In this document: positions 55,659 to 58,945 of the stretch, one piece after another | Numbering within the stretch: position 1 is the first letter of the stretch | Layout of the letters: each line of letters starts with the position of its first letter | Origin: a virus | Lineage: Duplodnaviria > Heunggongvirae > Uroviricota > Caudoviricetes | Length of the DNA stretch: 64,000 nt | Strand: one strand, 5' to 3' | Virus record (IMG/VR): IMGVR_UViG_3300048672_000524 | Span: 1 to 64,000 of that record | Notes under the pieces: generated by a model | Seen by the model: the letters and a program-made list of their open reading frames with translations, nothing else | Told to the model about the DNA's origin: nothing | Databases searched by the model: none | Position numbers and translations under genes: made by a program

Positions 55659-56663
55659 ATGTTTAATAAGAACGAAATCAAGAGTATCCCCTTTAATCTA
55701 ATCCCACAAGAGATTAAGAATCTAACAAATACACTAGTGAGCGAAAAAGTTCATGATGTGTATAATTCACTAGTACGAGCCTATGAAGCACGGGTACAGA
55801 AAGTAACTCGTCTTAGCTCTCAGTTTAGTGAAAGTAATGAAGGTATTGAAGAAGGGGTTCGTGAAGCCTTAGCTCCTCCTGATCTGGATAGTATTCAGCT
55901 ACCAGATGAAGAAATACAAAATATTCAGCGCTCTGTACGTAATGACGTAGTAGAAGCGTTTATTAGCAAGTATCAGTTAGCTGTAAAGCATACTTGGCTA
56001 ATGCCTCAAATGCTAGCCCACTTTGGCCGATGGACCCCAGTACGAAATACTGATGGCCAAATCTCGGGTAAGACCACAGTAGTTGAAAACTGTACTACTG
56101 ACTGGGAAAAAGGTCTATATTTAATTGCCACTACTCGCCGAGGCACTCTACTGAAGAACTGCGGTACGCCTATGTACCAACTGCCCATGTATGGCAGTTT
56201 AGTGCCTCTAATCATGGCAGGTCTAAAAACCTCTAGGGATATTTCATATAATGAGTGGTCTAGGGAAGATGTACGTTATGTAGTCGATCCAGATTTATAC
56301 GCTGGTATGACTTGTACGTTCCCTGATATTAGTACTGAAGAATTACTAGAGATTCGTACTAAAGGACTTACTGTAGCTTCAGGTAAGACTATGGGTAAGG
56401 TCAATAATCCAGTTACTCAATTTAAGTTAACTGGTATCGCAGATACCGAGCTCTCGGGTCTGCCATGGTATGGGCAAGTAATGATGGCCCAAATCTGGTG
56501 TGCACATCCAGCTAATCGTAGCCATTATATGATTCTAGACCCAATAGACTGGGATAAGATGCCTAAGGCACTAATTAATGATAGTGTAGTAACTTCTTCA
56601 TCTGCTCCAAAGTCACTGCGTGCGACTAAGATTGCATCAAATGATATTCCTTGGGATTTTTAA
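55659..56663 (+). CDS. hypothetical protein (334 aa)
   Basis: ORF track; no recognisable domain. Confidence 0.45.
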   Translation: MFNKNEIKSIPFNLIPQEIKNLTNTLVSEKVHDVYNSLVRAYEARVQKVTRLSSQFSESNEGIEEGVREALAPPDLDSIQLPDEEIQNIQRSVRNDVVEAFISKYQLAVKHTWLMPQMLAHFGRWTPVRNTDGQISGKTTVVENCTTDWEKGLYLIATTRRGTLLKNCGTPMYQLPMYGSLVPLIMAGLKTSRDISYNEWSREDVRYVVDPDLYAGMTCTFPDISTEELLEIRTKGLTVASGKTMGKVNNPVTQFKLTGIADTELSGLPWYGQVMMAQIWCAHPANRSHYMILDPIDWDKMPKALINDSVVTSSSAPKSLRATKIASNDIPWDF

Positions 56664-56666
56664 TTC

Positions 56667-56734
56667 GCTGTACTTGCGCTAACGCTGTACTTGCGCTAAC
56701 GCTGTACTTGCGCTAACGCTGTACTTGCGCCAAC
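56667..56734. repeat. 4 x 17-bp direct tandem repeat (GCTGTACTTGCGCTAAC), iteron-like
   Basis: four perfect/near-perfect head-to-tail copies; followed by TTGCGCAAG palindromes at 56750, 57283, 57446. Confidence 0.8.
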
Positions 56735-56944
56735 TGATACCTTCGGTATGTAGTTGCGCAAGCCGGGGCTGTCAAGAAAATAACATAAGTGATATCACTT
56801 TGATATCATCCGTAACTAAAACTGCGCAAGTTTTTACCCGTAGGGTATAGGTTGCGCGACTCGGGTTGGTACACTAAATAACCTCAATTATTCGCTTTTT
56901 CACCGTTTCAAGCTGGAAATTTTTACCCTACATCCAGGATTTGG

Positions 56945-57253
56945 GTGCCAAACATGAAGTACGACAAAGAAACAACTGATCAAATAATCAAGCTGTATCA
57001 AGCAGGCACATCGGTCACAGACCTGGCAGCCCAGTTTGATGTACCTGAACGTTCCATTATCGCCAAACTTAGTTCACTAGGAGTATACCAGAAGAAGGAA
57101 TACTTGAACAAGCGCGGCGAGAAGCCAGTCAAGAAAGAGGAGTACATCGAACGTATCGCCGAACTTCTTGACGTAAATCTAGAGTTGCTAGAATCGCTGG
57201 AAAAGGCTAATAAAAATGTACTAATCCTTCTAGAAAAAGCACTTCAGCCCTAA
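56945..57253 (+). CDS. small sigma-region-4-like HTH protein (family member)
   Basis: TTDQIIKLYQAGTSVTDLAAQFDVPERSIIAKLSSLGVYQKK. Confidence 0.45.
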   Translation: MPNMKYDKETTDQIIKLYQAGTSVTDLAAQFDVPERSIIAKLSSLGVYQKKEYLNKRGEKPVKKEEYIERIAELLDVNLELLESLEKANKNVLILLEKALQP

Positions 57254-57348
57254 TTGCGCCAAGTGATGGCTACGCCATTAAGTTGCGCAAGCCAGGTAAA
57301 ACAACTACTAACCTTATCAGCAGAGGAATAGTCCTCAATTAGATGTAA

Positions 57349-57385
57349 GAAAGCCCACTTAATGAAAATTAAGTGGGCTTTTTGC
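57349..57385 (+). terminator. rho-independent terminator
   Basis: AAGCCCACTTAAT-GAAA-ATTAAGTGGGCTT + TTTT. Confidence 0.6.
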
Positions 57386-57502
57386 GTTTTAAGTCAAATT
57401 TTGTCAATTTATGCCATTTTGCTATGATTGCAACAATTCAGGCCCAGTTGCGCCAAGTGGTGGCGAAGCCACTAGGCTGCGCGACTTAGGGCAGAGATCT
57501 AG

Positions 57503-57532
57503 AATTTACACTTGACACAATTGGTTTTACAC
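57503..57532 (+). promoter_or_regulatory. consensus sigma70 promoter (TTGACA-18-TAAAAT-TTGGCGC), module 1
   Basis: member of the repeated plus-strand promoter family. Confidence 0.55.
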
Positions 57533-57623
57533 TGGTAAAATTTGGCGCCGAAGCGCCTGAAACAGACTTACGAATTTGGCAGGGTGCTCTGAGTTAGGGG
57601 TACCGGGTAGACAAAACAAAAGC

Positions 57624-57660
57624 TCCTATACGTCGACGTATAGGAGCTTTTGAAGTTGGT
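57624..57660. terminator. perfect palindromic hairpin (bidirectional terminator-like)
   Basis: AAAAGCTCCTATACGTC/GACGTATAGGAGCTTTT. Confidence 0.55.
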
Positions 57661-58629
57661 TAGACTTTTTGCAGCCAACACATACCACCACAGTCCGCAT
57701 TAGCTGGTCTGCCCTCACTACGGAGTAGAGTATTGGCCTCCGACAAGAGGGAGCCTTCTGTGCTCAAGACTAGAGGATCAGTCTAGCTTCAACCTAATTT
57801 ATACTCTGGGTCTCGAGTAGCTTTATATATGCTAGTCCCCTCGCCAAGGTTGTAACACCACGTTATAAATATGCACATACTACTAAACGTGGACTTCGTC
57901 CGTGCTATTACCTTCGGTGGCTTAGTAGAAGTTCCTGGGAAGTGGGACTTGCAATACTTACCGGAAGTCGAAGGTTTCGCTAGAATTGCACTAGCTCATC
58001 AGATAGCTTAAAAACAGACTTGCTTCAATGGGAGGGTCTCCAAATTAAGACCCACCCCCTAGAAACAGACTAGGGTAATTTACCGAGCGCCGAGTCATCA
58101 CGTTGTCCAGTCATTGGTATGTTTCATTTTGGGATCTGTATCCTAGCTCGCTTGGGGTTTCAGCCCGTTGTAGCCATGTCGATACTCGTCACCGCACCAT
58201 ACACTTGCCGTCTCTTGCTACTACTCAACTCAATCTGAACATTGTCGGTAAATTATAAAGTAGGGACTACTGGTTCGCCTCGCCTCCGATTGGGCACTCA
58301 GCCCTCTGTTCAGCTTACCTCCACAATAACCCCAAATCGAAGGGCAGCAGGGTAAGAGCTTCACCTGCTATTAAGTTTTTATCTATACCCATCACCGGTG
58401 AGCTACTTGCGGGTAGCCGGGTCTTGGAGTACAGCCTTGAAACACCCAAGTTAAGCAACAACTGATATTCTATCACGTCTCATTGGCTTTTACCGTCTTT
58501 TAGTGCACATTATACACGGGGTTTTGGCGGTAGCCGTAGATGTTGTTGCTTAACTTGACTGTCTAAGAATATATTATACAGTCATTAGGGTCGGGATTCA
58601 AGTTTAAATTTCCCGACCCTAGAACTCGC

Positions 58630-58945
58630 TCAATCTGCTGACACAGCCAGAACCAGAGCAGTCAGCGCTTCCTTGGTAGCCTTTTCGAAGCTCTCGAAGG
58701 TACCAGTGGCAACTTCGAACTTAGCTTCTAGAGCCTTAACCAGGTCAGCCTTGGTTTGGGCAGTAGCCTTAGCTTCCTTGTCCTTGGCCTTGTACACGCC
58801 TTCGCGGGTCAGCTTGGCAACCACAGAGCGCACAGTCTTGCCCACTTGAGCAGCCAGGGCCTCCACAGTTTCACCAGCCATGTAACCTTGCACCAGAGCG
58901 GTGGTTTGGGCCTCAGTGTAATTCACAGTCTTTTCGCTAGCCATT
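58630..58945 (-). CDS. small sigma-region-4-like HTH protein, paralog A
   Basis: MASEKTVNYTEAQTTALVQGYMAGETVEALAAQVGKTVRSVVAKLTREGVYKAK; SD AAGGAAA + ATG; ORF-track start trimmed. Confidence 0.55.

Follow-up and report, generated by a model that had tools for sequence, protein, structure and literature searches.

A predicted hammerhead ribozyme and candidate regulator-site repeats at the junction of two facing gene blocks in a distant T5-like phage

Gene layout and elements of the junction

The window analyzed here is a 64,000-nt stretch of DNA from an uncultured phage (IMG/VR record IMGVR_UViG_3300048672_000524, positions 1-64,000), and the region under study, at 56.66-58.63 kb, is the junction of two facing gene blocks, in which a predicted hammerhead ribozyme lies within a conserved non-coding locus and several arrays of short repeats are found. 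By its sequence the window is that of a distant T5-like phage without a deposited relative, and its DNA polymerase has 51% identity to Vibrio T5-like phage polymerases. The plus-strand cluster (49.5-57.25 kb) encodes an endolysin, an HD phosphohydrolase and a metallophosphoesterase, and the minus-strand genes restart at 58.63 kb in a block that includes a homologue of T5 dmp at 62340-62621 (E 8e-14; PF26880). A second minus-strand block spans 1-48.7 kb and holds a family A DNA polymerase, an SbcC-like protein, a Ro60/TROVE protein, 24 tRNAs, a tmRNA and a group I intron. As judged from gene content, the blocks on the two sides of the gap are pre-early-like (dmp, A2-like) and early-like, and they face each other. 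The gap is free of open reading frames (ORFs) from 57254 to 58629 (1.38 kb) and separates the dmp/A2-like block from the lysin/phosphoesterase/tRNA block. The gene order elsewhere differs from T5. The genes and the elements of transcription are as follows.

55659-56663, plus strand: gene of a 334-aa protein (from the ORF list), penultimate gene in the plus-strand cluster
56954-57253, plus strand: A2-like-3, a 99-aa T5-A2-like helix-turn-helix (HTH) protein (phrog_1725, E 1.6e-6; D5-like phrog_323, E 2.3e-6)
57350-57386, plus strand: intrinsic terminator of the plus-strand cluster, with a 14-bp stem (57350-57381), a 4-nt loop and a T-run; kept in relatives
57512-57541, plus strand: sigma-70-type promoter TTGACA-18-TAAAAT, 11/12 matches, with TG, followed by TTGGCGCC
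57549-57660, plus strand: putative small RNA of ~100 nt with the hairpin GGCGCCGAAGCGCC at its start, spanning promoter to bidirectional terminator
57617-57652, both strands: perfect 36-bp palindrome, predicted bidirectional terminator; TTTTGTTTTG follows on the minus strand
57610-58566, minus strand: putative non-coding transcript of ~950 nt, from the minus-strand promoter to the terminator; longest ORF 53 aa
58007-57904, minus strand: predicted type I hammerhead ribozyme, cleavage after GUA, between 57909 and 57908
58601-58573, minus strand: sigma-70-type promoter TTGAAT-17-TATAAT, 10/12 matches
58586-58621, both strands: inverted repeat TAGGGTCGGGA / TCCCGACCCTA with 11-bp arms around the -35 hexamer, the window's only intact TAGGGTC family-motif pair
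58630-58944, minus strand: 104-aa A2-like protein (phrog_1725, E 6.8e-7; weak PF26822), facing A2-like-3 at the end of the pre-early-like block

The initial annotation of this DNA had described ~1.9 kb of near-noncoding sequence with a single small ORF, one consensus promoter and several long perfect hairpins. The A2-like-3 ORF, which has an alternative GTG start at 56945, is indeed the only sizeable one between 56664 and 58630, and three strong hairpins are present at 57350-57381, 57617-57652 and 58586-58621. The description as near-noncoding is correct for protein-coding content and misses the conserved RNA locus, with a predicted hammerhead, that fills most of the gap, and the consensus promoter at 57512-57541 is joined by a second one on the minus strand (58601-58573) that had been overlooked.

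In a blastn search of 50,697 deposited phage records, 56400-58900 had no match, including to the injection-stop regions of known T5-like phages, and the 334-aa protein and A2-like-3 have no protein match among the same records. Searches of IMG/VR with the 334-aa protein or the iteron sequence found no close relatives, whereas an alignment of the A2-like proteins gave >500 matches, from which 80 IMG/VR loci (numbered with the prefix L) with 47-79% identity to A2-like-3 were taken as relatives. The order of elements is shared among them, with the 334-aa homologue followed by A2-like-3, a terminator, a sigma-70 promoter, a palindromic terminator, the gap, a minus-strand promoter and the facing A2-like gene. 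The gap in relatives is 1-2 kb with dmp placed a few kb beyond the facing A2-like gene (67 loci), and in L037 a homologue of T5 A1 is located just past the gap (E 5e-96). The 334-aa homologue and A2-like-3 are contiguous in most relatives, with a spacer of 10 nt in L074.

The three A2-like paralogues of the window, the third being at 60048-60389, all match phrog_1725 and the D5-like phrog_323, and T5 A2 itself matches phrog_1725 at 4e-52. Alignment of the A2-like family profile with T5 A2 gives an hhalign probability of 89% (E 2.3e-6) over 98 columns, near full length; the matches to PF26822 are weak and pairwise BLAST of the A2-like proteins against T5 A2 is not significant. On these profile matches the proteins are assigned to the T5 A2 family (phrog_1725/PF26822). 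The 334-aa protein has no match in Pfam, PHROG or NCBIfam, its homologues adjoin the A2-like gene in 75-76 of the 80 related loci, and a profile of its family found no T5 LTR or early protein, T5.011 included. An NCBIfam scan of eight neighboring proteins gave no matches.

The conserved RNA locus and its hammerhead

Iterative nhmmer searches show ordered conserved blocks across the gap in nearly all loci, and the fold z-score of the putative ~950-nt transcript is -4.1. Its promoter is positioned ~560 nt upstream of the ribozyme and the terminator palindrome ~290 nt downstream. The promoter belongs to a class used across the minus-strand genes of the phage, its profile recurring at 58970-59108, 37991-38143, 33180-33285 and elsewhere, and the 57617-57652 palindrome, with its T-run following on the minus strand, is the only strong terminator match. 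On the opposite strand the block at 57484-57552, in the area of the plus-strand promoter, has 77-84% identity in at least 12 relatives, TTGGCGCC is also found after other plus-strand promoters of the locus, and the promoter-to-terminator arrangement of the small RNA is repeated in L074 and L081. No Rfam family reaches threshold in the region of the ~950-nt transcript (56400-59100, scanned to E 10).

The ribozyme core in the window is formed by CUGAUGA at 58002-57996 and GAAA at 57978-57975, surrounded by stem I (GCUAU/AUAGC), stem II (GCUAG/CUAGC, loop UGCAAUU) and stem III (ACCUUCG/CGAAGGU) with an insert of ~52 nt. In an alignment of 32 distinct sequences from the loci CUGAUGA, GAAA and U16.1 are invariant in 32/32, as is the A15.1-U16.1 pair, and the minus strand of every group reads CUGAUGAG, hairpin, CGAAA. 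The cleavage triplet of the window copy is GUA, whereas the other 31 sequences have GUC. Stem II is paired in all its variants (GCUGA/UCAGC, GCACA/UGUGC, GUCCA/UGGAC and GCCUA/UAGGC, with GCUAG/CUAGC in the window), and stem I, of 3-6 bp, covaries as CCCU/AGGG, UCCA/UGGA and UCCU/AGGA compared with CUAU/AUAG in the window. The stem III hairpin is long, with an insert of 40-55 nt and a conserved UUCCCA-like end loop, and the loop of stem II is conserved as UGNAAKU.

Pairing is maintained in 88% of cells overall, and in 77%, 97% and 90% of cells for the individual helices, with two-sided changes in 15 of the 18 pairs; no column shuffle out of 500 is as good (0/500), and sliding the partners by 1-3 columns reduces the pairing to 24-45%. 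All three stems are independently recovered by RNAalifold, and both the minimum-energy and the centroid fold of the window copy form the three-way junction. A covariance model built on the alignment (R1) identifies a single window copy, at 58010-57901 (70.3 bits, E 1e-20), as well as 57 copies in related loci, non-training members included, in the same syntenic place, and finds no hammerhead in T5 1-70 kb. The element is thus a well-supported hammerhead by sequence, with a full core and three covarying helices, and is predicted to cleave itself.

The Rfam hammerheads (RF00163, RF02276 and RF00008) have in common with this element the full core, the A15.1-U16.1 pair, an NUH site, three helices and a phage intergenic location, and hammerheads in phages are known from the intergenic regions of PaP3 and Bcep176, for example (Perreault et al. 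2011, PMC3088659). It differs from the known examples in the very short stem I, the 40-55-nt insert in stem III and the conserved stem II loop, and in forming part of a non-coding RNA of ~1 kb whose syntenic position is fixed in a T5-like family. The literature searched holds no report of this variant, of the tie to tRNA-Glu described below or of a ribozyme at a T5-like boundary.

In ~15 loci a tRNA-Glu(UUC) is located on the minus strand directly 5' of the ribozyme. L081 has the two elements in tandem (tRNA-Glu, ribozyme, tRNA-Glu, ribozyme) as a duplicated unit of 193 nt (2705-3093, minus strand), with the cleavage sites ~10 nt before the next tRNA. The adjacency to tRNAs and the tandem units of L081 point to the cutting of a tRNA-containing early transcript into units as the most likely ancestral role. 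Two of the gap tRNA-Glu genes called by ARAGORN (L016 9445-9519 and L007 9189-9263, minus strand) are below the Rfam tRNA threshold and may be divergent or merely tRNA-like.

The sequence AAACAGACT is present three times on the plus strand (57560-57571, 58012-58021 and 58062-58071), one site being in the small plus-strand RNA and two immediately 5' of the hammerhead, which is on the opposite strand, and it forms tandem arrays in L009, L030, L038 and L064. Pairing between the plus- and minus-strand transcripts through these sites is possible.

On architectural grounds, T5 RNAX (NC_005859, 39.7-41.6 kb; RNA 40848-41566, minus strand) may be a functional counterpart of the RNA locus. It is an annotated stable RNA of 719 nt that has a minus-strand early promoter and is contiguous with tRNA-Arg. 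An efficient bidirectional terminator, a facing plus-strand cluster and a major nick in its neighborhood parallel the arrangement in the window, whereas no sequence similarity was seen and RNAX is located within the early region and not at the pre-early boundary.

Repeat arrays, family motifs and other features of the window

The repeats of the region, and those of a second region outside it, are as follows.

56666-56733, plus strand: four tandem 17-bp iterons CGCTGTACTTGCGCTAA, the fourth copy with one mismatch
56725-56762, plus strand: module M1, TTGCGCCAACTG, hairpin ATACC-TTC-GGTAT, GTAG, TTGCGCAAG
56789-56809, plus strand: GTGATATCAC palindrome, then TTTGATATCAT; AT-rich spacer
56822-56862, plus strand: module M2, CTGCGCAAG, hairpin TACCC-GTA-GGGTA, TAGG, TTGCGCGACT
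57254-57291, plus strand: module M3, TTGCGCCAAGTG, hairpin ATGGC-TAC-GCCAT, TAAG, TTGCGCAAG; directly after the A2-like-3 stop codon
57448-57496, plus strand: module M4, TTGCGCCAAGTG, hairpin GTGGC-GAA-GCCAC, TAGG, CTGCGCGAC, TTAGGGCAGAG
59262-59590, plus strand: second repeat region, outside 56660-58630, with TTNGCACT four times and the family T5-nick/DRD-like motif CACTGGCGCAGCC at 59314-59344

TTGCGC is contained in every iteron, the minus strand reading A/GCGCAAG. Both the four iterons and a clustering of TTGCGC boxes had been recognized in the initial annotation and are confirmed here, 12 of the 35 window copies of TTGCGC falling within 56674-57453 (780 nt, 1.2% of the window). The boxes had also been taken as palindromic, which is true of the 8-mer TTGCGCAA, a perfect palindrome at 56754 and 57283 only; the boxes TTGCGCCAAG at 57254 and 57448 are not palindromic, and the proposed CTTGCGCAAG does not occur.

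The boxes are arranged in four modules of ~40 nt, starting at 56725, 56822, 57254 and 57448, each composed of a box, a 5-bp hairpin and a second box with TTGCGC or CTGCGC spaced 29-30 nt start to start. The module stems are unlike in sequence (ATACC, TACCC, ATGGC and GTGGC) and all perfectly paired. M4 stops 16 nt short of the -35 hexamer of the plus-strand promoter. GTGATATCACTTT, of the AT-rich spacer at 56789-56809, is found also upstream of the 334-aa homologue in L081. TTGCGC modules of the form seen in the window were not found in the relatives. By sequence comparison the 280-nt array of iterons and modules at 56664-56944 is an addition in the lineage of the window, because the 334-aa homologue and A2-like-3 are directly adjacent in most relatives; in L023 a 17-bp array built on a GCGCA core is present at another place in the gap.

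The relatives are characterized by other motifs. TTTAGGGTCAG (extended form TTGCNGCNNNTTAGGGTCAG) is present in 5-11 copies on both strands within ~3 kb around A2-like-3 in ~65 of the 80 relatives and is rare elsewhere, the copies in L005-L084 being at locus positions ~6500-9500. It is found exactly where the window has M3 (following the stop codon) and M4 (ahead of the -35 hexamer), and TTTAGGGTCAGAG is placed in relatives at the same distance from the promoter as M4. The window retains decayed copies only, GCCCTAA (57247-57253) and TTAGGGCAG. The dispersed TTTAGGGTCAG/TTGCNGCNNNTTAGGGTCAG motif is identical to the substrate strand of the ribozyme in most loci. The idea that these copies are substrates in trans was rejected, as they are constant where the ribozyme strand has changed (L007, L058 and L063), stem III is closed in cis, and the copies occur within ORFs and in both orientations; a partial exception is L014, where motif and substrate strand are both CTAGGATC.

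A second family motif, CACTGGCGC, has 133 plus-strand and 4 minus-strand copies across the 80 loci, often in tandem arrays, and is confined to the locus, the copies of the 34 full-length loci falling within positions 8000-11500. The boxes of the window are inverted, slightly altered copies of the family motif, with CACTTGGCGCAA on the minus strand. TGGCGCA has 10 copies in the window, four of them after the -10 hexamer of plus-strand promoters, three in modules and one in the canonical family copy. The four promoters in question are consensus promoters of the pre-early block with TGGCGCA just downstream of -10, and the 57512 promoter has the variant TGGCGCC at this position. The iterons and boxes are probably, to judge from sequence, binding sites for a phage regulator, a reading that is favored because the -10 hexamers of the local promoters are likewise closely followed by TGGCGCA.

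The second repeat region contains in addition 30-bp tandem repeats (two and a bit, 59391-59450), a plus-strand promoter (59498-59534) and the 30-nt palindrome TTGTAACA, and its motif content is closer to the repeats of the T5 injection-stop signal (iss) than is that of 56660-58630. The promoter is one of five near-consensus plus-strand promoters (TTGACA-17-TATAAT), the others being at 60724-60760, 62690-62726, 62758-62794 and 63483-63519. Four of the five are followed by TTTGGCGCAA, all point against the minus-strand pre-early-like genes, most lead directly into the terminator hairpin that belongs to the upstream minus-strand gene, and TTGTAACA repeats flank them.

Elsewhere in the window the tmRNA (25960-26419, minus strand) matches the permuted and beta-proteobacterial models with the tag peptide ANDSIFEVRLAA, and a betaproteobacterial host may be hinted at. 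A group I intron (28777-28972, minus strand; Rfam 60.7 bits) is located in the minus-strand gene block. The Ro60/TROVE plus vWA protein (36139-37467, minus strand) lies within the tRNA region. Bacterial Ro60 proteins partner with tRNA-like Y RNAs, and a Y RNA may be present near this gene. ARAGORN calls two tRNA-Ile(UAU) genes of odd length on the minus strand (37556-37623, 68 nt, and 41011-41102, 92 nt), of which Rfam backs 41011-41102 only (54.9 bits). Positions 1-130 are very GC-rich compared with ~37-45% GC in the rest of the window, with a strong hairpin next at 137-172, and may mark an assembly joint or a boundary with DNA of foreign or host-like character.

Interpretation of the boundary

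The reading that appears rather probable is that two facing transcription blocks of an uncultured T5-like phage meet here, with an RNA locus and arrays of regulator sites between them. The host RNA polymerase would start at the minus-strand promoter (58601-58573), or read through from the upstream A2-like gene, and make a non-coding RNA of ~950 nt that ends at the bidirectional terminator (57652-57617). The hammerhead would cut its own RNA after GUA (between 57909 and 57908) to give a 5' piece of ~660 nt with a 2',3'-cyclic phosphate and a 3' piece of ~290 nt with a 5'-OH in which the terminator hairpin is kept. A short plus-strand RNA from the 57512 promoter would stop at the same terminator. 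The iterons and modules (TGGCGCA/TTGCGC) would bind a phage regulator controlling the facing promoters, the A2/D5-like HTH proteins from both sides being obvious candidates.

Several observations weigh against this reading. The fold z-score of the opposite (plus) strand is also strong (-3.2), and the Rfam hammerhead models are below the gathering threshold in the window and in nine loci, the best match being RF00008 (Hammerhead_3) with 18.8 bits compared with a threshold of 48.5 (E 1.5); the stem III insert is probably the cause of this miss. Conservation extends to the loop of stem II (UGNAAKU), to the end loop of stem III (UUCCCA) and to ACGAAAACCC in the 3' flank, but complementary pairing between them was not found and a tertiary contact was not identified. 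The window copy is without an adjacent tRNA-Glu, a hairpin being in its place, and the tRNA-Glu of the window is located in the main tRNA cluster (44514-44588). The module hairpins maintain their pairing with differing sequences, which suits an RNA or single-strand structure over a duplex operator, and the boxes of the window are oriented opposite to the arrays in relatives.

The strongest of the alternatives, which is possible but doubtful, is that the gap is a T5-type injection-stop/nick region at the inner end of the first-step-transfer DNA (the terminal-repeat boundary), with the GCGC repeats as entry-pause or single-strand nick sites and the A2-like proteins resuming transfer; such a role in DNA transfer could coexist with the RNA locus. 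A T5-like position and architecture had been claimed in the initial annotation, and the convergent, repeat-rich gap between pre-early-like (dmp, A2-like) and early-like blocks agrees with this, as does the A1 homologue just beyond the gap in L037. The annotated iss of T5 (9140-10149; injection-stop signal/Repeat Region 3, NC_005859 9140-10409) is a gap between the plus-strand T5.011-017 and the minus-strand early genes, and contains nine DRD copies on one strand. It is untranslated, repeat-rich and ~1.2 kb in length (Davison 2020, bioRxiv 10.1101/866236). Both are convergent gaps of >1 kb with a terminator at the start, direct repeats and palindromes, and A2-type genes nearby, and at the level of the family both have a one-strand GCGC motif beside a GTGCAAA-type repeat. 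The reverse complement of CACTGGCGC, GCTGCGCCAGTGCAAAACC, resembles CCCTGCGCTTTTGTGCAAATCC of T5 (the 7.9% nick and the first DRD), which is the only YTGCGC-N0-6-GTGCAAA match in T5 1-20 kb, and has the same pre-early-to-early polarity together with the strand bias of 133 to 4. The iterons, read on the minus strand as A/GCGCAAG, may also be compared with the T5 major-nick consensus R/GCGCRGG (PMC3517423); exact copies of this consensus number two in the window and none within 56660-58630.

The details are less favorable to an injection-stop role. The motif comparison with T5 is post hoc and rests on ~15 nt, and is treated as a lead. The boxes of the window have the reverse orientation of the family arrays, most relatives have the flanking genes abutting at the position of the boxes and carry other repeats there, and the canonical copy of the motif (59314-59344) is outside 56660-58630. 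Eight DnaA boxes, paired as IRD'-spacer-IRC' and IRC-spacer-IRD, are reported as the conserved core of the iss (Davison 2020, bioRxiv 10.1101/866236). A search of 56660-58630 gave no match to the DnaA box TTATCCACA at ≤1 mismatch, the 20 matches in the whole window being at chance level, and no long inverted-repeat pair of the IRC/IRD type (IRD'-spacer-IRC') was found. There is no DNA similarity to deposited phages, and in a further difference with T5 most of the "non-coding" DNA here is a predicted structured RNA with a ribozyme, the A2-like genes directly flank the gap and the gene order is not the same. The terminal-repeat boundary was not located in the 64-kb window, IMG/VR contigs being permuted. 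Contig ends were rejected as physical genome ends, their breaks falling at the iterons, the palindrome and a multi-copy promoter block; Logan contigs break at the iterons and at the 57617-57652 palindrome, which says nothing on genome ends because repeats are expected to break assemblies. T5 mutants that lack the nicks still transfer their DNA in two steps, which also counts against this alternative. The injection-stop interpretation is thus partly supported, being right in position and general architecture and unsupported in its defining details.

It is unlikely that the modules are RNA elements of the plus-strand mRNA (processing or stability elements, or nut-like antitermination sites) or small selfish repeats. 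The four perfect 5-bp stems of differing sequence with a fixed box spacing of 29-30 nt indicate selection on pairing, and M1-M3 are within the plus-strand transcript, but M4 is placed after the plus-strand terminator and before the next promoter and may be untranscribed. The box sequence is moreover common to the site downstream of promoter -10 hexamers and to the family DNA arrays, which suits a DNA site, and with four copies only the statistics are weak. Selfish repeats would be consistent with the restriction of the modules to the lineage of the window, as is expected of young repeats, but target-site duplications and a transposase are absent.

A view in which the boundary is a combined DNA/RNA checkpoint is a little less likely still. 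A T5-like strand-specific motif array would be at the first-step pause, and the DNA entering last would carry the gene of an RNA processed by the hammerhead (in its ancestral form tRNA-Glu plus ribozyme). Production or cleavage of this RNA, in concert with the A2-like proteins on either side, would set the time of the switch to entry of the full genome. The TTGCNGCNNNTTAGGGTCAG element would in that case be read both as DNA and as RNA.

Iterons beside an AT-rich palindromic spacer are a feature of lambda-type origins, and an origin of replication, in which an initiator would bind the four 17-bp iterons next to the ~60-nt AT-rich stretch with palindromes (56770-56830), had been suggested for the locus but is highly improbable, since the iterons are not conserved and the flanking genes abut there in most of the ~80 relatives whereas a family origin is expected to be conserved, DnaA boxes are absent from 56660-58630, no initiator-like protein is found among the nearby genes in Pfam, PHROG and NCBIfam scans, the GC content of the region is above the genome average with the GC-skew turn at ~48 kb, and the origins of T5 are reported near the genome center. 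The arrays do resemble iteron and operator arrays such as the lambda origin with O and plasmid iterons with Rep in having tandem short repeats at fixed spacing beside the gene of a small DNA-binding protein. They differ in the abutting of the flanking genes at the iteron position in relatives, in having no homologue of an initiator and in the presence of the core 7-mer just downstream of the -10 hexamers of local promoters.

The reading of an RNA locus with regulator-site arrays bears on the biology of both the ribozyme and the boundary. Hammerhead ribozymes are common, and their roles in phages are mostly unknown. The one described here is conserved at a fixed location in a very large T5-like family of environmental phages, often as a fusion with a tRNA, and standard models miss it; it suggests a concrete and testable role, the processing of a tRNA-containing early transcript, along with a new alignment with which more ribozymes may be found. 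To our knowledge, the T5 injection-stop signal has been undefined for >50 years; comparison with this distant family can separate conserved from T5-specific features of the iss, and the absence of DnaA boxes here argues against such boxes as a universal requirement. Phage DNA that appears non-coding and repeat-rich can hide RNA genes.

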